Origin: Patescibacteria group bacterium | GTDB taxonomy: Bacteria; Patescibacteriota; Minisyncoccia; Phycocordibacterales; JBBTRF01 | DNA length: 64,000 nucleotides | Direction of reading: 5' to 3' | Assembly (NCBI GenBank): GCA_038065315.1 | Contig: JBBTRF010000001.1 | Location: 230,413-294,412, forward strand | Part shown: positions 4,259 through 34,429 of the stretch, piece by piece | How positions within the stretch are numbered: the first letter of the stretch is position 1 | Layout: each line of letters begins with the position of its first letter | Position numbers and translations under genes: made by a program | Notes under the pieces: generated by a model | Told to the model about the DNA's origin: nothing | Seen by the model: the letters and a program-made list of their open reading frames with translations, nothing else | Database searches by the model: none

Positions 4259-6514
4259 TTAAGCCCTCTTCTTCCTCCTCACCTCCGTCACCCGTTTCGC
4301 TGCGGCGGCGCGCTCCTTTCGGTCGCCCTTCACCACAGCCCCAATCCGCTCCTCCAGTGCCTTCACTTCGTCGCGCAAAATAGCGGCCGTTTCGAAATCC
4401 AACACCTTCACGGACTCCTCCATTTCGGCTTCTTTGCGCTTGATCACCTTGCGAATCAGCTTTTCGGCCTCCGCAGCATCGGTCACACCAGCAAACTCCG
4501 CCTCGTCCACCGCGAGCAAGCCCTTCACCGCCTTGGCATGGTCGGTCTGGATCTGGTCGGTGATGTCTTTGATCGCCTTGATAATCGTCTGCGGCGTGAT
4601 GCCGTGCCTGGTGTTGTATTCTATCTGCAGGGCACGACGACGCGCCGTCTCCTTCATCGCCCGCTCCATCGAACCGGTGACCTCGTCGGCATACAAAATC
4701 ACGCGGCCAGCCGTATTTCGCGCCGCACGACCAATCGTCTGAATGAGCGCCATCTCCGAGCGCAGGAAGCCCTCCTTGTCTGCATCGAGAATACCAATGA
4801 ACGTCACCTCCGGCAGGTCGAGGCCTTCGCGCAAGAGGTTCACGCCCACGAGACAGTCGAATTTGCCGCGACGAAACTCTGTGAGAATCTGAATACGATC
4901 GATGGTCTTGATTTCGCTATGCAAATATTCGGCCTTGATCCCCTTCTCCTTCAAATATTCCGACAGGTCCTCCGCCATTTTCTTGGTGAGGGTCGTCGCG
5001 ATAACTCGCCCACCCTTTTTCACTTCTTTTTGGGTTTCGGCAATGAAGTCGAAAACTTGACTGGAATAAGAACCCTTTTTCTCAATGATTGGGCGAATCT
5101 CCACTTCTGGATCAAGGAGGCCAGTCGGTCGAATCACCTGCTCCGCGATCTGCCCATCGCCATCAGGACCGCCCTTAACGCTACGCTCGAGCTCATACTT
5201 GCCCGGCGTGGCGGTAGTGTAGATGCGCTGGCCGAGGCGTTCTTCGATCTCGTCGAATTTGAGCGGCCGATTGTCGCGTGCGCTTGGTAATCGGAAACCA
5301 TACTCCACGAGCGACTGCTTACGTGATGCATCGCCAGCAAACATACCGCCCAACTGCGGAATCGTCACGTGTGACTCGTCGATGATGGTGAGGAAATCCG
5401 GCTCGCCGAGATTGCCAACCGCGCTTGGAGCACCCTTCTTCACCGCCTTATGCGGAAAATACGAAATGAGCGTATCCGGCGGTGCGCCCGCAGGCATCCC
5501 GCTGAAGTGGCGCGAGTAGTTCTCGATGCCGTTGCAGTAGCCGACTTCGCGGATCAGTGCCAAATCATAGTTGGTGCGGCGTTTCAAACGCTCCGCCTCG
5601 AGATTCTTTCCCGCCGCTGCGAGCTCTTTGAGCCGCACATCCAGCTCGGCCTTAATCGTCTGCAAAGCCCGCTTCTGCCCTTCGTCCGTCGTAATGAAAT
5701 GTTTAGCCGGGAACAAAAAGAACGCGTCAACGTCGCCGATGATGCGGCGAGTGGTCGCGTCGATCTTCATGATTTCGCCGACCACTTCCACCGGCACTTC
5801 GGCGCCTTTGCCCGCTTTTTCCATTTTCGTCTCGAACCCAATCCGAAACAGCGCGCGCTCGTTCACCGGCATGATCTCGATCGAGTTGCCCAGCGCGCGG
5901 AAGGTACCTGGCGTCAAATCAGCGTTGGTGCGCTCATAGTGTATGTCGATGAAACGGCGCATCATGTCGGCACGATTGCCCTTCATGCCGCGCGCGATCT
6001 TCATGTTGACCTTCTCGTATTCAACAGGCGAACCCAGACCATAGATACAAGAGACGGTAGCGACGATGATGACATCCTTGCGCGTGAGCAGGGCCTGGGT
6101 CGACGCGTGGCGCAAGCGTTCGATCTCTTCGTTGATCATCGCCTCTTTTTCGATATAGGTGTCGGTGACGGGCATGTACGCCTCGGGCTGGTAGTAGTCG
6201 TAGTAGGAGACGAAATAATGCACCGCGTTGTCCGGGAAAAACTCTCGATATTCCTGCGCGAGCTGCGCCGCGAGCGTTTTGTTGTGAGCAATGACGAGCG
6301 TCGGCTTGCCAATCTGTTCGATGACATTGGCCGCGGTGAATGTCTTGCCCGAACCGGTCACACCAAGCAGGGTCTGATGTTTCATCCCCTTGCGCACGCC
6401 CTCGACGAGCATCTTGATCGCCTTCGGCTGATCGCCCGCCGGCGTGTGGCCACCGGTTTTGAGTTTGAAGGGTGAATTTGCGGCCGAATTTTCGTTTTTT
6501 GACGCGGCTTTCAT
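4259..6514 (-). CDS. uvrB: Excinuclease ABC subunit B (UvrB)
   Basis: Walker A GVTGSGKT, the beta-hairpin region, helicase motifs and the C-terminal UvrB/UvrC interaction domain are present. Start refined to the internal Met (MKAASK..., ATG at 6514), because the upstream extension in the track ORF runs through a repeat element. Confidence 0.95.
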   Translation of the reverse strand: MKAASKNENSAANSPFKLKTGGHTPAGDQPKAIKMLVEGVRKGMKHQTLLGVTGSGKTFTAANVIEQIGKPTLVIAHNKTLAAQLAQEYREFFPDNAVHYFVSYYDYYQPEAYMPVTDTYIEKEAMINEEIERLRHASTQALLTRKDVIIVATVSCIYGLGSPVEYEKVNMKIARGMKGNRADMMRRFIDIHYERTNADLTPGTFRALGNSIEIMPVNERALFRIGFETKMEKAGKGAEVPVEVVGEIMKIDATTRRIIGDVDAFFLFPAKHFITTDEGQKRALQTIKAELDVRLKELAAAGKNLEAERLKRRTNYDLALIREVGYCNGIENYSRHFSGMPAGAPPDTLISYFPHKAVKKGAPSAVGNLGEPDFLTIIDESHVTIPQLGGMFAGDASRKQSLVEYGFRLPSARDNRPLKFDEIEERLGQRIYTTATPGKYELERSVKGGPDGDGQIAEQVIRPTGLLDPEVEIRPIIEKKGSYSSQVFDFIAETQKEVKKGGRVIATTLTKKMAEDLSEYLKEKGIKAEYLHSEIKTIDRIQILTEFRRGKFDCLVGVNLLREGLDLPEVTFIGILDADKEGFLRSEMALIQTIGRAARNTAGRVILYADEVTGSMERAMKETARRRALQIEYNTRHGITPQTIIKAIKDITDQIQTDHAKAVKGLLAVDEAEFAGVTDAAEAEKLIRKVIKRKEAEMEESVKVLDFETAAILRDEVKALEERIGAVVKGDRKERAAAAKRVTEVRRKKRA

Positions 6515-28612: not shown

Positions 28613-29062
28613 CTACGCGAACAAGCTCGCCAACAGCGCGATCAGCATCACGGTCAGCAGGTTGGAACCAATGTCCGAGAAGAAGCGTGGCCAAGCGATC
28701 GCCCGATCGCCATTGCTCCAGAGGATGCCGGAACCGATGGTCGGCACAATAAAGCACAGCCAGTTCAGTGCCACGAAGCCGAGGGCCATCCAGAGAGTGA
28801 GGCCGTTCTTTAGGCTCGTAGTCACGATAAAGACGGTTGCGAAAGCAGTGAGAAAAGACAAGGCAAGCTGCCCAGCGTACATCTTTGGCATCATGGCCTT
28901 CCCTTCTTCCATTTTGCGTTTCATCTCTTCTTCCGACAGGTCGCCACAGCCGAGTGCGCGCATGTGGAGCTTCCCCATTGGTGTGCTGCCTGAATACCAA
29001 AAGGTGCCGACAACAGCTGCGATCACGGCTCCGGCGAGGGAGAGTAAGATGATGGTGGTCAT
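28613..29062 (-). CDS. DUF1761-like small membrane protein
   Basis: Four TM helices; conserved Trp/Tyr pattern (GTFWYSG..., ILWSNGDRAIAW). Confidence 0.4.
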   Translation of the reverse strand: MTTIILLSLAGAVIAAVVGTFWYSGSTPMGKLHMRALGCGDLSEEEMKRKMEEGKAMMPKMYAGQLALSFLTAFATVFIVTTSLKNGLTLWMALGFVALNWLCFIVPTIGSGILWSNGDRAIAWPRFFSDIGSNLLTVMLIALLASLFA

Positions 29063-29127: not shown

Positions 29128-30681
29128 CTACTCCACCTTAAATTCAAACATCATTCCTGCTTCTAAATGCTCCGAGATGTGGCAGTGGGCCATCCACGCG
29201 CCAGGATTCGATGGGTCAAGCACAATATCTACCGTCTCGCCCGACTTCACTAAAACAGTGTCTTTCCAGACAAGATTGCTCTGCTTCACGCCGTCACGAG
29301 ACACCACCAAGAATCGCTGACCATGGAAATGGATCGGATGCTGCATCGGATGCATAGAGTTCGAGTCGTTGAAAATCCGAATCTTCACAGGCTGGCCATT
29401 TTTGAATGACCAGTCAATATCCATATTTTCCCTGCCGGTATCCTGATCGACAATCTTCCACTTTATCGAATCCTTGTTCGACATCTCGTTCATCATTGAA
29501 TTCGTGTCATTCCACTCAATACCATCCGAACTTCCGGACATCATCGATCCGCCCATCATAGTGCCGTCCGGCATCATGTGCGCACCATGGCCCATTCCTT
29601 GCATATTCATCATGCCGCCGCCCATATCGAGTGTCAGTGCGATTCGCTTTTGCGGCACGGTATCGAAAAATGCACGGAACGGCTCGATGCTTTCAGTTAC
29701 CGTGCGATTCACCTGAAGACGGTCAAACTCTTTTTGATATGACTGACTGACTTTTTCTGAGCCAACAACGAACGCGCCCATTGAATACCGCCTCTCGGGA
29801 GTGTCATTTTGGATGCTATATGCGCCCGCACTCGGAAATAGTACGTCCACGATCGCGCGTTCCGATGGTCCAAGCACTACGCTATCAACGAGCGTCGTTT
29901 TTTCATACGCGCCGCTGTCGCCACCGACAAGCTTGAGCTTCAAGCCACTGATCGCAAAGCGAAACGGTCGCGCATTCGCCGCATTTATCACATACAGGCG
30001 CACGACTTCCCCCGTCTTTGCCTGAAGATTCACCTTCTCCTGCCCATTCACCAGCAATATGTTCCCATAATGTCCCATGAGCGAGTGAGTGTTGTCGCCT
30101 TTCTCGATTTGGATCCTGCCATTTTCAAGCGGCAAATCGGAAAGGAAAAGCGGCAGTTCCCTGTTCACAGGTGGAAAATACGAGGTATCTGTCGGAGTCA
30201 CGATGAACGCGCCATAGAGTCCCAGTGCCTGGCCATAGACTTCCTGCACATGCGGATGATACCAAAATACTCCAGCATCCGGGAATTTCAGTTTGTATGA
30301 AAACGTCTCTCCCGATTTCATTTCCCGCTGCTGTGTTTGCGAACCATCAAAGGCATTTTCCATGCGCACACCGTGAGAATGGAGCAGAGCTGGCAGGTCA
30401 GTGCCGTTTTTAAAATTGATGGTCACTTCTGCACCTTGTGCGACCCTGATCGTCGGACCAGGGATCGAACCGTTGTACGCCAACATCTTTTGCTCCTTGC
30501 CAGCGAGCACTTTGGTGACATAGCTTGCGATGAGGTCGTATGTATCGCCATTTTTGAGCTCAACGACAGTGCTCGCCGCTACCGCTTGTGTTGGAACACT
30601 GTATTTATTCGCCAACAGCGCATATCCTCCGGCAAGGACGGCGACCGCCACAACAACAGCAAGAATTGTTTTGTGTTTCAT
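29128..30681 (-). CDS. Multicopper oxidase (CueO/PcoA-like) with a Met-rich copper-binding insert
   Basis: Signal peptide; copper ligand motifs HSHG, HPHVQE, HPIHFHG and HCHISEHLEAGMM (type 1 Cu); Met/Gly/His-rich segment MGGGMMNMQGMGHGAHMMPDGTMMGGSMMSGS. Confidence 0.85.
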   Translation of the reverse strand: MKHKTILAVVVAVAVLAGGYALLANKYSVPTQAVAASTVVELKNGDTYDLIASYVTKVLAGKEQKMLAYNGSIPGPTIRVAQGAEVTINFKNGTDLPALLHSHGVRMENAFDGSQTQQREMKSGETFSYKLKFPDAGVFWYHPHVQEVYGQALGLYGAFIVTPTDTSYFPPVNRELPLFLSDLPLENGRIQIEKGDNTHSLMGHYGNILLVNGQEKVNLQAKTGEVVRLYVINAANARPFRFAISGLKLKLVGGDSGAYEKTTLVDSVVLGPSERAIVDVLFPSAGAYSIQNDTPERRYSMGAFVVGSEKVSQSYQKEFDRLQVNRTVTESIEPFRAFFDTVPQKRIALTLDMGGGMMNMQGMGHGAHMMPDGTMMGGSMMSGSSDGIEWNDTNSMMNEMSNKDSIKWKIVDQDTGRENMDIDWSFKNGQPVKIRIFNDSNSMHPMQHPIHFHGQRFLVVSRDGVKQSNLVWKDTVLVKSGETVDIVLDPSNPGAWMAHCHISEHLEAGMMFEFKVE

Positions 30682-30683
30682 GT

Positions 30684-32660
30684 TTATATATGTTTATTTT
30701 TAAGCAACACGGCATTGATGGCGACGATCACCGTACTTGCAGACATGAACACCGCAGCGAGCCACGGCTGAAGGATAATCCCTTTCGACGCAAGCACACC
30801 TGCAGCCAGGGGTATTGCGACCACGTTGTACCCAGTCGCCCAGAAAAGATTCTGGATCATTTTGTTGTAGGTAAGTCTCGAGAGATTGAAGATCTTCAAA
30901 ATATCTCTTGGATCATTTTTCACCAAAATGATCCCGGCAGATTCGATCGCTACATTCGTGCCTGCGCCGATCGCGATCCCGAGGTTGGCCTGAGCCAGAG
31001 CCGGAGCGTCATTCACCCCATCACCCACCATCGCCACGATCCGACCCTTGCTTTGGAGCAGTTTCACCTTCTCGGACTTTTCTGCCGGACGGACGCGGGC
31101 AAAATATTCTTCGATACCAAGCTCTTTCGCGACCTCTTTCGCCACTTCTTCTGAATCTCCCGTGATCATCGCGACGGCGATGCCTGCTTGCTTGAGCTTT
31201 GCCACGGCCTCCTTCGCCTCAGGACGAACGATATCGGCAATGACGATCGTGCCGATCTGCACTCCGCTTTTTTCGACCACAATATCTTTGCCACCACGAT
31301 GACCGACAAATACACTCACGCCGTCAACCTTGGCCTCTGCGCCCGTACCGGCAATTGTGTTGAAATCTCGCACTTCGCCGATCTTGAGACGTCTCTTCTG
31401 AGCCTCCTTCAGAATTGCCTTGCCGATAGGATGTTCAGAATGCGTTTCGACGGCAGCAGCAAGCGCAAGCACCTCATCGGAAGTTACCGACACGACGCCG
31501 AATTCGCCTTTAGTGAGCGTTCCTGTTTTGTCGAATAGTACAGTGTCGATTTTTCTCGCACCCTCGAGAGCGACGCGCTCACGGATCAACAAGCCATTTC
31601 GTGCTGCCATGGTCGTGGAGATGGCCGCCACCAGTGGCACTGCGAGACCGAGTGCGTGAGGACAGGTGATCACCAATACAGCCACCATTCGCTCCATGGC
31701 GGTGAGTGTTCCCGCGCCAGCGAGGAGCCAAGCGACAAAAGTGATGCCACCTCCAACGATGGCGACGATGGTCAGGTAGAATGCGGCTCGATCAGAAAGC
31801 ATTTGTAGTCGAGATTTCGAAGACTGCGCATCGGCGACCAATCGCATCACACCTGCCAAAAATGTTTTCTCTCCAATAGTGCTGACCTCCACCTTGAGAC
31901 TACCCTCGCCATTGATAGAGCCGGCAATTACTTCATTTCCCGCATGTTTCTGTACCGGCTTTGACTCGCCCGTGAGGATTGACTCGTTCACATTTGATTG
32001 GCCTTCAATAACTCTGCCGTCGGCGGGGATCTTTGACCCTGGCTTGATCAATACGATGTCGCCAACTCTCAAATCTGTAAGCGGCAAGGTCTCCGTGAGA
32101 TTTCCGCGGACCACTTCTGCTGTATCTGGCAAGAGTTTCGAGAGCTCTTTCAACGCTCCTTGTGCACCCATGACCGACTTCATTTCGATCCAATGCCCGA
32201 GCAACATGATCGCTATCAGCGAGGCCAACTCAAACATCAGATCGTGCATCCCGCCCGAAAGGATCGAGAAGACACTGTAGCCGTAGGCGGCGGTGACGGC
32301 GATGGCAATGAGCGTCATCATACCCGGCAGCCGCGCCTTGAGCTCGGCATAGGCGCTCTGGAGAAATACCCAGCCGCAATAGAAATACATGACTGAACCG
32401 AGAAGCAAGAGGACATACTGCCAGCCAAAAAACTCTGGACCCCTGACGTTGAATACCTCTTTTGCCATCTCAGAATAGAAAAAGATTGGAAGCGTGATGA
32501 TCAAAGAAATCCAAAACTTCTTCAAGAAATCAGCCGTATGGTGGCCAGCATGCTTATCGTGCGATTCCGCGTGCTCGTGATGGTGCTCGTGCGCGCTCGG
32601 GTGTTCGTGCGTGCACTGATGTTTGTGTTGGTGTTCCATATTATTTTTTCTTCTGAGCAA
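30684..32660 (-). CDS. copB: Copper-translocating P1B-type ATPase (CopB-like, His-rich N-terminus)
   Basis: CPH motif (ITCPHALGLAVP), DKTGTLT, GDGVNDAPAL; His-rich N-terminus HQHKHQCTHEHPSAHEHHHEH. The gene ends 3 nt before the MCO start. Confidence 0.9.
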   Translation of the reverse strand: MLRRKNNMEHQHKHQCTHEHPSAHEHHHEHAESHDKHAGHHTADFLKKFWISLIITLPIFFYSEMAKEVFNVRGPEFFGWQYVLLLLGSVMYFYCGWVFLQSAYAELKARLPGMMTLIAIAVTAAYGYSVFSILSGGMHDLMFELASLIAIMLLGHWIEMKSVMGAQGALKELSKLLPDTAEVVRGNLTETLPLTDLRVGDIVLIKPGSKIPADGRVIEGQSNVNESILTGESKPVQKHAGNEVIAGSINGEGSLKVEVSTIGEKTFLAGVMRLVADAQSSKSRLQMLSDRAAFYLTIVAIVGGGITFVAWLLAGAGTLTAMERMVAVLVITCPHALGLAVPLVAAISTTMAARNGLLIRERVALEGARKIDTVLFDKTGTLTKGEFGVVSVTSDEVLALAAAVETHSEHPIGKAILKEAQKRRLKIGEVRDFNTIAGTGAEAKVDGVSVFVGHRGGKDIVVEKSGVQIGTIVIADIVRPEAKEAVAKLKQAGIAVAMITGDSEEVAKEVAKELGIEEYFARVRPAEKSEKVKLLQSKGRIVAMVGDGVNDAPALAQANLGIAIGAGTNVAIESAGIILVKNDPRDILKIFNLSRLTYNKMIQNLFWATGYNVVAIPLAAGVLASKGIILQPWLAAVFMSASTVIVAINAVLLKNKHI

Positions 32661-32913
32661 GCTTGTAAATTTTCAGGATCTCTGCCGTCGCCCGTCTCTC
32701 TCGGCCTGTTTTCATCTGATGCAACACGTGAGTCTCCAGGTGATTCTGCAAGATCAGGTCTTCGACGCCGGCCAAAGCCTCCTTGATCGCGCTCGCTTGG
32801 GTGATGATATCAACGCAATACTTCTCTTTCGCCACCATGTTCACCAGTCCTCTCAATTGCCCCTGCACGATATTCAGACGCCGCGCCACTTTCTTTTTGA
32901 TTTCAGCTTTCAT
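32641..32913 (-). CDS. csoR: CsoR/RcnR-family metal-sensing transcriptional repressor
   Basis: RRLNIVQGQLRGLVNMVAKEKYCVDIITQASAIKEALAGVEDLILQNHLETHV: the conserved C-H-C ligand pattern of CsoR. It overlaps the copB start by 20 nt (operon). Confidence 0.8.
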   Translation of the reverse strand: MKAEIKKKVARRLNIVQGQLRGLVNMVAKEKYCVDIITQASAIKEALAGVEDLILQNHLETHVLHQMKTGRERRATAEILKIYKLAQKKK

Positions 32914-32920
32914 CTCTACA

Positions 32921-32941
32921 GTATACCCCCCATGGGTATAC
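32921..32941. promoter_or_regulatory. Candidate CsoR operator: GTATACCC-N5-GGGTATAC palindrome 8 nt upstream of csoR
   Basis: Perfect 8-bp inverted arms with a C-rich centre, matching the ATACCC..GGGTAT architecture of known CsoR operators; a second partial GTATAC lies 25 nt further upstream. Confidence 0.6.
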
Positions 32942-33178
32942 GTGGCAAATGAATAGGTGTATACTATGAGCAGTCGGTGGCAGTATTACTCATTTTAATA
33001 CAACACTTTTATGATGACATATGGATACAGCGGCATGATGGGCGGAGCGGGATTGCTCGGTGGACTCATTTGGCTTGTGGTTGTCGTCGACCTCGTCCTC
33101 CTCGGCGTCTGGCTTTGGCAGCAGGTTGCGAAGAAGTAGCGAAGGTACCGTCCACTCAATTCAGCTCAGCAACCGAAC

Positions 33179-34429
33179 CTACAAAAACAGCAAATCCCTA
33201 TCCAAATCCTCCGCGTCAGTACCCTTTTCTTCCTGTTGGAGGGCATGATGAGTTGAGGCCAGGTACACTGTCCGTTTGCCGAATTTGCCTTCGAGGAGAT
33301 CGATTCGGTCGTGCACAGCTTCAAGCTTGCCGGCCGCCTCCCCGCCGCCAAACAAGTCCGCCTGATGTGTGCCCGACGGTACCAAGTCGTGCAGCGTCAC
33401 CCCCGTAGTGCGATACAGGGTGCGCTTGGCGTAGATTTTCGGAAACTCCTTCAGCGCCAGAGACATGATGATCTCTGGTGCATTCGTCGGTGAAGCGAGC
33501 GTCACGGTGGTGTTGGCATACACAAAATCTTTTGTCTTGAGGAAAAACGACACTTTTTTCGGAGCGAGCTTGAAGTATCGCGCCTTCGCACAGACATCCT
33601 CGATATGCTTGGAGAGCTGTGACATGAGAAAAGTCGCGTCGTTGGTACTCGGATGAAATGACCGCGTTCTTTGCATCGATGAATACGTGGTCTTTTTCTC
33701 CGGGTCAATGGGCACGACGGAAGTGCCGTTCAGCTCCTGCCAGATCGTGAGGTACGGCTTCGACAAATGCGCCTGGAGCCACGAGAGGTCCTTGCGAGCG
33801 AAATCTCCGGCCGTAGCGATCCCCTTGCGCCGCAAAAGCTCGGATGTCCGCGGCCCGATTCCCCAGATCTTTTCGATCGACGTGTTTTCGAGAAAGTCGA
33901 AGATGGCGGCAAGGTCGATGACAGTGAGACCGTTGGGCTTCATCCATTTCGAGGCAACTTTCGCGAGTACTTTGGTGGGTGCGAGGCCGATAGAGACGGA
34001 CAAACCAAGCTCTTCGGTGATTTCTTTTTTGATTCGCTTCGCGATCTGCAAGTAGGTCATTTTCAGCGGCCGATCCAGGCCGGTGAGGTCGGCGAAGCAC
34101 TCGTCGATACTGTACTCCTCCACATCGTCGGCGTAGCGGCGAACAATATCAAACATCAGCTGCGAATACCTCACATACGACGCGTAGTCGCCGGGCAGGA
34201 TGATGACCTGCGGGAATTCTTTTTTGAGCCTGAAAATCGGCATACCGCGGATGACCCCAAGTGCCTTCGCCTCGTACGACAGCGCCGACACAATCCCGCG
34301 CTCCTCGCCCGTCACCACCGGCAGGCCCTTGAGCTTCGGATTCTTCGCCACCTCAACGCCCACGAAAAAAGCATCACCATCGATGTGGAGGAGGGTTTTT
34401 TCCGCGGCGTTTTTGCTCGGCTGGTTCAC
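33179..34429 (-). CDS. dinB: DNA polymerase IV (Y-family, DinB)
   Basis: LHIDGDAFFVGVE (catalytic DxD region), SIDE; overall UmuC/DinB architecture with a little-finger domain. Confidence 0.85.
   Translation of the reverse strand: MNQPSKNAAEKTLLHIDGDAFFVGVEVAKNPKLKGLPVVTGEERGIVSALSYEAKALGVIRGMPIFRLKKEFPQVIILPGDYASYVRYSQLMFDIVRRYADDVEEYSIDECFADLTGLDRPLKMTYLQIAKRIKKEITEELGLSVSIGLAPTKVLAKVASKWMKPNGLTVIDLAAIFDFLENTSIEKIWGIGPRTSELLRRKGIATAGDFARKDLSWLQAHLSKPYLTIWQELNGTSVVPIDPEKKTTYSSMQRTRSFHPSTNDATFLMSQLSKHIEDVCAKARYFKLAPKKVSFFLKTKDFVYANTTVTLASPTNAPEIIMSLALKEFPKIYAKRTLYRTTGVTLHDLVPSGTHQADLFGGGEAAGKLEAVHDRIDLLEGKFGKRTVYLASTHHALQQEEKGTDAEDLDRDLLFL

Follow-up and report, generated by a model that had tools for sequence, protein, structure and literature searches.

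In an uncultured groundwater bacterium of the Patescibacteria (candidate phyla radiation, CPR), a gene for a 42-residue single-pass membrane peptide stands back to back with a copper-export operon, and it belongs to a family whose members recur beside copper genes. The DNA analysed is a stretch of 64,000 nucleotides (the window; contig JBBTRF010000001.1, positions 230,413 to 294,412, with features numbered here from its first letter), and identical public contigs come from Hainich groundwater samples. The operon, csoR-copB-mco, is a standard CsoR-type copper operon of a known kind in a CPR genome, and its repressor, pump and oxidase are textbook components; the recurrent accessory peptide gene is previously undescribed. 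We lean towards the overall picture, in which a CsoR-controlled copper operon is accompanied by a copper-related accessory peptide, and, judged from the company that its gene keeps, some role of the peptide in copper homeostasis is likely.

The peptide gene (MMTYGYSGMMGGAGLLGGLIWLVVVVDLVLLGVWLWQQVAKK) lies at 33011-33139 on the plus strand, divergent from csoR, and its product is listed at NCBI as hypothetical protein AAB391_01355 of Patescibacteria group bacterium. The original prediction, made from the letters of this stretch, had the peptide sequence exactly right but placed the open reading frame (ORF) at 33001-33129 and took it to be unlisted. A first homologue search found nine relatives. 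Profile searches then recovered 209 clusters (50% identity) among 1.84 billion cluster representatives, 26 of them at E ≤1e-10 and mostly of 38-48 residues, and 1,370 clusters at 90% identity in a set of 5.8 billion proteins; the best 120 of these 1,370 clusters contain no Pfam domain and no informative name. For the comparison of loci (designated by L-numbers; the searches for the peptide also yielded the csoR loci), scanning a single genome for each species gave 14 loci, and a metagenome scan gave 317 confirmed relatives, from which the 80 loci most similar to the window peptide were retained. Thirteen of the 14 genome loci carry CPR titles (Saccharibacteria, Levyibacteriota, Taylorbacteria, Nomurabacteria, Patescibacteria). 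The fourteenth, L016, is labelled Gammaproteobacteria and is probably misbinned, because it resembles the Levyibacteriota locus L013 in having a near-identical peptide and in standing beside a CPD-type ATPase. With L016 so read, the family appears to occur only in CPR assemblies.

All 102 copies that were located are intact ORFs of 30-66 residues (median 43), representing 86 distinct peptides. In a 24-codon core compared over 88 distinct DNA versions, the entropy is 0.90, 0.27 and 1.48 at codon positions 1, 2 and 3, and codons that differ by a single base do so synonymously 2.5 times as often as non-synonymously. The start signals converge on one methionine pair, with Shine-Dalgarno sites where a lineage employs them and a -10 box where transcripts are leaderless. 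A Shine-Dalgarno-type motif is found 4-20 nt upstream of the MM start at 25 of the 87 distinct loci, in many cases as a strong GGAGGTGA 6-9 nt upstream, and at many others a TATAAT-like box precedes this methionine pair by 6-8 nt. Within the window, a Shine-Dalgarno motif precedes 4 of 48 long ORFs, compared with a background of 22%, and 11 of the 48 have a -10-like hexamer whose end lies 4-11 nt from the start, compared with a background of 1.6%. Leaderless mRNAs thus seem common in this CPR genome, and since it is poor in Shine-Dalgarno sites, the missing site at the peptide ORF is uninformative.

These data bear directly on the idea that the 42 codons are a chance frame that is never translated. 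The window copy does lack a Shine-Dalgarno site, and no Pfam family covers it, but more than 1,370 homologous clusters, the intactness of every copy, the coding pattern of substitution and the placing of start signals on the same codon across lineages all speak against chance, as does the scarcity of Shine-Dalgarno sites in the genome as a whole. We give the chance frame practically no probability; the conservation data effectively refute it, and by the same patterns the ORF is almost certainly a real gene, in line with the original prediction. Other readings were rejected. A fragment of a longer gene does not fit the dominance of short forms with start signals of their own. A hydrophobic peptide of the type I toxin kind is at odds with the phylum-wide conservation, the copper-operon location and the translational coupling to copB. 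As a leader peptide or an upstream regulatory ORF of copB, the gene would be misplaced, since it is mostly found downstream of copB or the oxidase gene or on the opposite strand. As for the precursor of a modified copper-binding peptide, the conserved part is the transmembrane helix, and no maturation genes recur nearby.

The peptide resembles no family that we could name. The window peptide has no match in Pfam at E ≤0.01 or in NCBIfam at E ≤0.1, nine other members (two short, seven long or tandem) have no credible Pfam match at E ≤1, and the family profiles of KdpF, FixS/CcoS, DUF2933, DUF5676, SHOCT-containing proteins and CopL/DUF1541 gave no significant match to the peptide. A link with the N-terminal region of SHOCT-type proteins, which combines Gly/Met with a helix, is at most conceivable. 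Literature searches on DUF5676, on small copper proteins of CPR and on leaderless CPR genes found no description of the family. A terminator after the peptide ORF is not evident, the downstream RNA folding no better than shuffled sequences.

The family consensus is MMGYGYxGMMGG-x(5-8)-WLVVxxDLVLLGxWLWKQIxKK. Asp27 and Leu35 are invariant among 82 sequences, and Leu28, Leu30, Gly32 and Trp34 are nearly so; within the tail, Gly8, Met10 and Gly12 are invariant in the A1 alignment. The window peptide consists of a Met/Gly-rich N-terminal tail (MMTYGYSGMMGGAG), a helix and a Lys-rich C-terminal end. AF2 predicts a helix at residues 13-40, with pLDDT values up to 98, behind a flexible tail at residues 1-12, which agrees with the Gly/Met-rich N-terminus and single transmembrane helix originally proposed. 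By the positive-inside rule, the Lys-rich C-terminal end and the uncharged tail favour an orientation with the N-terminus outside and the C-terminus inside. Long forms of 158-238 residues lend independent support to this topology, since a signal peptide and a Met/His-rich domain of ~90 residues with two invariant cysteines precede the same Gly/Met linker and helix, so that the N-terminal side of the module would face outward. The outer domain is a confident four-helix bundle in the AF2 model; a Foldseek comparison with the PDB returned only generic helical bundles (E >1), and the sequence of a long-form member found no match in the PDB.

The long forms are encoded at L032 (526-1047), L076 (576-1118), L078 (5659-6135) and L091 (5554-6138) and are represented among the proteins by P0024, P0047, P0081, P0099, P0110, P0117 and P0153. 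Just before their internal MMG stands a conserved Gly-Gly-Val encoded by GGAGGTG, which is Shine-Dalgarno-like, so the short form might also arise from an internal start. Some members carry His- or Cys-rich C-terminal tails, predicted to be cytoplasmic, such as HHHHHDNH, CHHHNHDHNH and CKCEHKHNHGHEHHH; such tails are present in P0089, P0104, P0115, P0142, P0154 and L100 (5989-6189) and recall the His-rich N-terminus of CopB.

The genomic neighbourhood was compared over 86 non-redundant loci, 25 of which are well flanked, with at least 3 kb on each side. Linkage to copper genes was taken as the presence of CopB, CsoR or the oxidase in the fetched DNA, about 6 kb around the peptide gene, and was found at 45 of the 86 loci and at 17 of the 25 well-flanked ones. 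CopB is the commonest co-located family (36/86), followed by CsoR (23/86). A CopB-like ATPase lies within 6 kb at nine of the 14 loci from species-representative genomes, and the first set, which includes the context loci L001, L004 and L006, holds 12 non-redundant loci with such an ATPase. By our own estimate, chance would link the peptide gene to a pump in a few per cent of cases, given one or two pumps per genome of ~1 Mb.

Several of the arrangements are tight. The peptide gene follows copB on the same strand after 19-49 nt in L001, L004, L006, L021, L044 and L089. In the case of the Saccharibacteria locus L015, it lies directly before copB with its own AAGGAGG, and the stop and start codons overlap in TAATG, an arrangement of translational coupling. 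It follows the oxidase gene after 22-25 nt in L047 and L058, and it is the last gene of csoR-led clusters in L038, L042, L059, L060 and L066. The divergence of the peptide gene (+) from csoR (-), already recognised in the original prediction, recurs at five more loci (L031, L077, L081, L087 and L099). Such variation by lineage argues against simple inherited synteny.

The partner ATPases are mostly of the CPH CopB type (23/32). Seven ATPase ORFs beside the peptide gene, at six distinct loci (L013, L016, L042, L046, L078 and L087/L090), have CPD in place of CPH or CPC in transmembrane segment 4 (TM4) and MSxSS in TM6, a combination of P1B motifs that to our knowledge has not been characterised. 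DUF5676, a protein with two transmembrane segments, is the most frequent immediate upstream neighbour and is encoded directly before the peptide gene (≤200 nt) at eight loci (L015 5686-5958, L020 5050-5304, L026, L028, L033, L054, L066 and L092); the two may form a module, and the window has no DUF5676 gene. Other recurrent neighbours are DsbD_TM-like proteins, DUF1573, Redoxin, DoxX and two families with no Pfam match. A recurrent CPR cluster joins copB to a DsbD_TM-like gene, an Ig-like DUF1573 gene and two families with no Pfam match (~134 and ~305 residues); it is seen at L014 (2810-5943), L019 (2667-5991), L042, L046, L059 and L060 and resembles an envelope thiol-redox and metal island. 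The Saccharibacteria copB cluster of L015 contains another tiny membrane ORF at 5498-5668, of 56 residues from its upstream start and ending ...LCPIMMIVMMVRMDDNHKH (read from the first ATG), with a Cys/Met-rich helix and a His-containing end; it is possibly a further metal-related small protein.

The operon of the window comprises three co-directional genes on the minus strand, as seen from the letters of 32400-33400 and from the ORF list, and the genes, domains and order originally proposed for one copper-resistance operon are all present. The first gene, csoR (32641-32913), encodes a CsoR/RcnR-family repressor of 90 residues (PF02583, E 3.8e-21; score 75.7 bits, cut-off 22.8). The second, copB (30684-32639), encodes a P1B-3-type copper ATPase of 651 residues with E1-E2_ATPase and Hydrolase domains, which scores 595 bits against the NCBIfam model TIGR01511 for copper-translocating P-type ATPases (cut-off 397). 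The P1B-3 subgroup is characterised by CPH in TM4, MSxST in TM6, a His-rich N-terminal domain and the DKTGT phosphorylation site. The translation of copB contains a His-rich N-terminus (MEHQHKHQCTHEHPSAHEHHHEHAESHDKHAGHH), VITCPHALG (CPH), FDKTGTLT (DKTGT), FMSAST (MSAST) and GDGVNDAP, and this set of motifs, as read from the translation, is the signature of CopB (P1B-3); the original prediction had already picked out the His-rich N-terminus and the CPH motif. A 20-nt overlap of csoR and copB, also claimed there, holds with the alternative start TTG 32660 and vanishes with ATG 32639. We dropped the TTG start for the ATG, which is the one used by the public gene calls on identical contigs (651 residues, 1 nt past the csoR stop); the alignments of CopB homologues begin within the His-rich stretch.

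The third gene (29128-30681, minus strand) encodes a CueO-like multicopper oxidase with an N-terminal signal or anchor. The Pfam domains Cu-oxidase_3, Cu-oxidase and Cu-oxidase_2 correspond to three cupredoxin domains, and the copper-ligand motifs HSH, HPH, HPIHFH and HCHISEHLEAGM are read in the translation. The Met-rich character predicted for this oxidase lies in an insert, GGGMMNMQGMGHGAHMMPDGTMMGGSMMSG, an MMGG-type stretch that resembles the tail of the peptide. CueO is the best NCBIfam match, but its score is under the equivalog cut-off (155 versus 525), which makes the protein a relative rather than an orthologue of CueO. A gene for a DUF1761 membrane protein (28613-29062, minus strand) follows 65 nt after the oxidase gene with no promoter or terminator match between them, and may extend the operon to four genes; at its 3' end (28630-28617) is a weak terminator-like hairpin. 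Many CPR CopB proteins (L001, L014, L015, L019, L020, L038 and others) carry an N-terminal zinc-ribbon-like metal-binding domain, YTCPMHPE...PGxCPxCGM, in addition to His-rich stretches; in the CopB of L001 this domain corresponds to PF19335 (HMBD), whereas the CopB of the window has the His-rich stretch only.

The repressor was aligned with the CsoR proteins of Mycobacterium tuberculosis (2HH7) and Thermus thermophilus (3AAI), which gives it the ligand fingerprint x-C-H-H (Cys33, His58, His62). Cys33 and His58 align with Cys36 and His61 of M. tuberculosis, and His62 stands at the position of Cys65, where Thermus also has a histidine. The PDB chains of CsoR match the window protein at E 2e-10 to 6e-9, the Thermus protein at E 1.9e-9. 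The glutamine equivalent to Q81 of Streptomyces lividans is kept (DIITQASA versus DILTQVSA); the RLXR motif retains the first Arg and the Leu, and its last Arg is replaced by Ile, where M. tuberculosis CsoR has Thr. The DNA-contact roles of the Q81-type glutamine and of the RLXR residues are known from S. lividans CsoR (PMC3902906).

From its context, this CsoR likely senses copper. What weighs against this reading is that the strict x-C-H-C triad for Cu(I) (Cys36, His61 and Cys65 in M. tuberculosis numbering) is absent, so that a preference for copper over other metals is presumed from the genes around it. A sensor of another metal or signal, for example of nickel or cobalt like RcnR, would be in keeping with the histidine in place of the second cysteine, with the His-rich ligand sets that RcnR-type sensors are generally known to use and with the weak matches to the NCBIfam RcnR and FrmR models. 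We nevertheless consider it very unlikely. The genes under control encode a CPH CopB and a Met-rich multicopper oxidase, the operator is of the type-2 kind bound by copper CsoR proteins, the N-terminal histidine of RcnR-type sensors is missing from the window sequence, and the copper sensor RicR is the best NCBIfam match. The C-H-H variant is in addition found in ten CPR CsoR orthologues, three proteins with the same operator type being C-H-C, and the C-H-H protein of T. thermophilus (TTHA1719, PDB 3AAI) is described as a bona fide repressor of copZ-csoR-copA.

The putative CsoR operator is a perfect palindrome, GTATACCC-CCCAT-GGGTATAC, at 32921-32941 between the two divergent genes, 7 nt from the csoR ATG rather than the 8 nt first reported. 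Its core, ATACCC-N5-GGGTAT, spans 32923-32939, and a TAC-X9-GTA dyad spans 32924-32938. Previous work defines a type-2 CsoR operator consensus, ATATACCCCTNAGGGGTATAT, with ATACCC and GGGTAT around N5 and a TAC-X9-GTA dyad, and mutation of this dyad abolishes the binding of S. lividans CsoR (PMC3902906). The window palindrome fits the type-2 consensus, with both elements exact, and the ATACCC/GGGTAT architecture attributed to it in the original prediction is thereby borne out. It is the sole match in the 64-kb window even when three mismatches are allowed (0.04 expected), with no second copy, and an Rfam scan of 32500-33400 returned only noise and no RNA family in the intergenic region.

A promoter scan places a sigma-70-like promoter, TTGCCA-17-TATACT, with 10 of 12 consensus matches, on the minus strand from 32948 to 32920, with the -35 hexamer at 32943-32948 and the -10 hexamer at 32920-32925. 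The palindrome therefore fills the -35/-10 spacer and overlaps the -10 element. Only 6 nt separate the end of the -10 hexamer from the csoR ATG, so the mRNA is probably leaderless. The same layout, with a -35-like element, ATACCC-N3-6-GGGTAT, a -10 element, 6-12 nt and the ATG, recurs before csoR at no fewer than 11 further CPR loci (L022, L031, L042, L054, L059, L060, L077, L081, L087, L091 and L099). The -10 elements are of the TATACT, TATATT or TATCAT type there, the equivalent -35 hexamers at the same position in related loci are TTGACA, TTGCAT, TTTACA or TGTACA, and the flanking sequence differs. On this comparative evidence, the palindrome is very probably the CsoR operator. Both checks suggested with the original prediction, on retention of the palindrome before orthologous csoR genes and on conservation of the small ORF and its start signals in relatives, came out in favour of it. 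A second clade of CPR CsoR proteins (C-H-C, with the N-terminus RLKIAxGHL) has another conserved promoter palindrome, ATATCCCC-N-GGGGATAT, upstream of csoR in L013 (3440-3473), L058, L062, L076, L088 and L092; operator type tracks repressor clade among the CPR CsoR loci.

Whether the same operator also governs the peptide gene is evenly balanced in our judgement. A candidate -10 hexamer, TATACT, lies on the peptide strand at 32960-32965 and contains part of a third GTATAC (32959-32964); the -35 belonging to it would border on or overlap the operator arm and the -35 of csoR, so bound CsoR could block transcription in both directions. A -10-like hexamer 20-24 nt from the operator edge is found on the peptide strand in the six divergent loci compared (TATACT in the window, L031 and L054, TACAAT in L099, TACGAT in L077 and TATACC in L087), with TAnnnT in five of the six. 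Control by the operator is also plausible in view of the many loci that have the peptide gene inside a csoR-led operon. Against it, the operator-proximal candidate was not picked up by the consensus promoter scan and its -35 is poor, and an alternative candidate -10, TTTAAT, read from the sequence at 32994-32999 (+), 11 nt before the peptide ATG, would give a near-leaderless transcript independent of the operator. That the peptide gene is expressed from TTTAAT, independently of copper, is a reading to which we give somewhat less than an even chance. The edge of the operator is 70 nt from the peptide ATG, and a TATAAT- or TTAAT-like box 6-12 nt before the start is common to many members of the family, including loci with no copper genes. 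The recurrence of TAnnnT at a fixed distance from the operator, L087 being the exception, speaks against an independent promoter, and the placing of the gene inside csoR-led operons at many loci argues that co-expression with copper genes has been selected.

A model that accommodates these observations is as follows. Metal-free CsoR tetramers on the operator would exclude RNA polymerase, and Cu(I) bound at Cys33, His58 and His62 would release the repressor; the csoR mRNA would start at or beside the ATG, with no leader, and the operon would regulate itself. CopB would pump Cu(I) out, and the membrane-anchored Met-rich oxidase would convert it to Cu(II). The helix of the peptide (xxVDLVLLGxWLWKQ, with the invariant Asp in mid-membrane) might dock to CopB or to another membrane protein of the island, and the tail on the outer face (MMxYGYxGMMGG) might capture exported Cu(I) and hand it to the oxidase, much as has been proposed for the Met-rich domain of CueO and for the lipoprotein CopL. 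Expression of the peptide would rise with that of the operon, through the shared intergenic operator in the window and five similar loci and, at many loci elsewhere, simply because the peptide gene lies within a csoR-led operon. The docking and relay parts of this model are tentative, with perhaps a little over one chance in four, and its narrower form, in which the family consists of dedicated CopB micro-subunits whose Asp helix binds the pump and whose Met-rich tail relays Cu(I) from the exit side to the oxidase, is at the lower end of that range.

Several observations count against a role devoted to copper. At eight of the 25 well-flanked loci, copper genes are missing from the surroundings; a Pfam scan of the neighbours at five of the eight showed RecG, a release factor, a cell-wall amidase or proteins with no Pfam match. 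Proximity to a CopB gene is thus not obligatory, and the peptide may have a broader role. In one context, the gene immediately follows a gene for Na_H_Exchanger/TrkA_N. Conservation is stronger in the helix than in the Met-rich tail, and the neighbourhood counts are inflated by shared ancestry of gene order, because the 80 metagenome loci were chosen as the closest to the window peptide. The loci with no copper gene, the exchanger context and the conservation of the helix would suit a general CPR envelope or membrane protein, concerned with membrane stress or serving as a subunit of several cation transporters or of thiol-redox machinery, whose proximity to copper genes merely reflects a larger conserved envelope island for metal and redox functions. 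That island also holds DsbD_TM-like, DUF1573, Redoxin, DoxX and DsbB/DsbA genes together with the two families with no Pfam match. We think this reading improbable, at about one chance in five, since CopB and then CsoR head the list of co-located families, the tightest arrangements involve copB or the oxidase gene, and the His- or Cys-rich tails and the Met/His-rich outer domain of the long forms point to metal chemistry.

The conserved helix may alternatively be the whole of the matter. A purely regulatory or stabilising micro-subunit, seated on the transmembrane domain of CopB and binding no metal, would account for the sequence-specific conservation of the helix with its invariant Asp, Gly and Trp, and for the adjacency or translational coupling of the gene to copB in several lineages; KdpF, sarcolipin and phospholamban, MgtR/MgtS and CcoS offer an analogy from general knowledge. 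The GMMGG-type motif of the tail is conserved as well, however, and a micro-subunit of this kind sits poorly with the copies that follow the oxidase gene instead of copB or stand alone, and with the lack of any match to the Pfam families of the known small partners. We regard it as slightly less probable still than a general envelope protein, and the copper-related accessory peptide is the reading that we retain.

Among known systems, the operon is nearest to the CsoR-regulated copB-mco and copX(B)-copL loci of Staphylococcus aureus and Listeria plasmids (PMC6191537; PMC10233261), and a CsoR palindrome, ATACCctggGTGGGTAT, lies upstream of S. aureus copX/copB (PMC10233261). The window shares with them a P1B-3 His-rich CPH CopB followed by a multicopper oxidase, and CsoR with a GC-rich palindrome upstream, but differs in its host, a CPR bacterium, in its probably leaderless transcript and in the place of csoR, which is the first gene and autoregulatory. 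CopL, a membrane-associated protein of the outer face, has been suggested to bind extracellular copper (PMC10233261). Unlike this lipoprotein, the peptide of 42 residues has a single helix, shows no similarity to CopL and is often encoded divergently or elsewhere. The window operator fits the consensus ATATACCCCTNAGGGGTATAT as do the type-2 operators of S. lividans, Bacillus subtilis, S. aureus and L. monocytogenes, and it has the outer GTA/TAC pair of S. lividans copZA1; whereas the consensus has N5, the spacer of the CPR relatives varies from 3 to 6 nt, and the window site is known from sequence. Compared with Thermus CsoR TTHA1719, which is likewise a C-H-H repressor of a copper operon, the operators differ, that of Thermus being another GC-rich site, CCCCACCCCACCTGGGGTGGGG.

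Small single-helix partners of P-type ATPases include KdpF, CcoS/FixS beside CcoI/FixI, MgtR/MgtS, and sarcolipin and phospholamban. By analogy, the peptide is a very short single-pass protein with a conserved helix, and its gene adjoins or is coupled to a P-type ATPase gene; it has no sequence relationship to these partners (Pfam, E ≤1, for the members tested), and it carries a Met-rich outer tail that sets it apart. We know of no small single-helix partner of CopB-type pumps. CutF of the Rhodobacter capsulatus cutFOG operon is needed for the activity of the oxidase, and gene neighbourhood led to the discovery of its family (PMC8456105). Like the peptide, CutF is small, extracytoplasmic and difficult to detect, and its gene adjoins that of a multicopper oxidase, but it is a Sec-exported, soluble, proteobacterial protein of 118 residues, with CXXXC and a Pro-rich end, and is unrelated in sequence. 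The Met-rich domain of CueO recruits Cu(I) (PMC11494321). Its Met/Gly/His clusters on the outer side have counterparts in the Met-rich segment of the window oxidase and in the MMGG flavour of the peptide tail, but the motif of the peptide is only ~12 residues long and tethered to a helix, and its copper binding is putative.

For a poorly studied phylum, the operon adds a comparatively supported CsoR operator and a leaderless promoter layout. The peptide is a useful lead, since it opens a very large, unnamed family of membrane proteins of ~42 residues that occur repeatedly with copper-export genes, and annotation routinely overlooks proteins this small or leaves them as "hypothetical". Should it act together with CopB or the oxidase, the peptide would be a new component of bacterial copper export, and a synthetic peptide with a recombinant pump would make a simple test system for the exit of Cu(I) from a P1B-3 ATPase, which is still debated. 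With a dedicated micro-subunit of CopB, a copper-exporting P1B ATPase would for the first time have a small protein as a known partner. In that event, and if CPR bacteria have no outer membrane, the peptide would represent an adaptation to an envelope that has no closed periplasm for a soluble chaperone.

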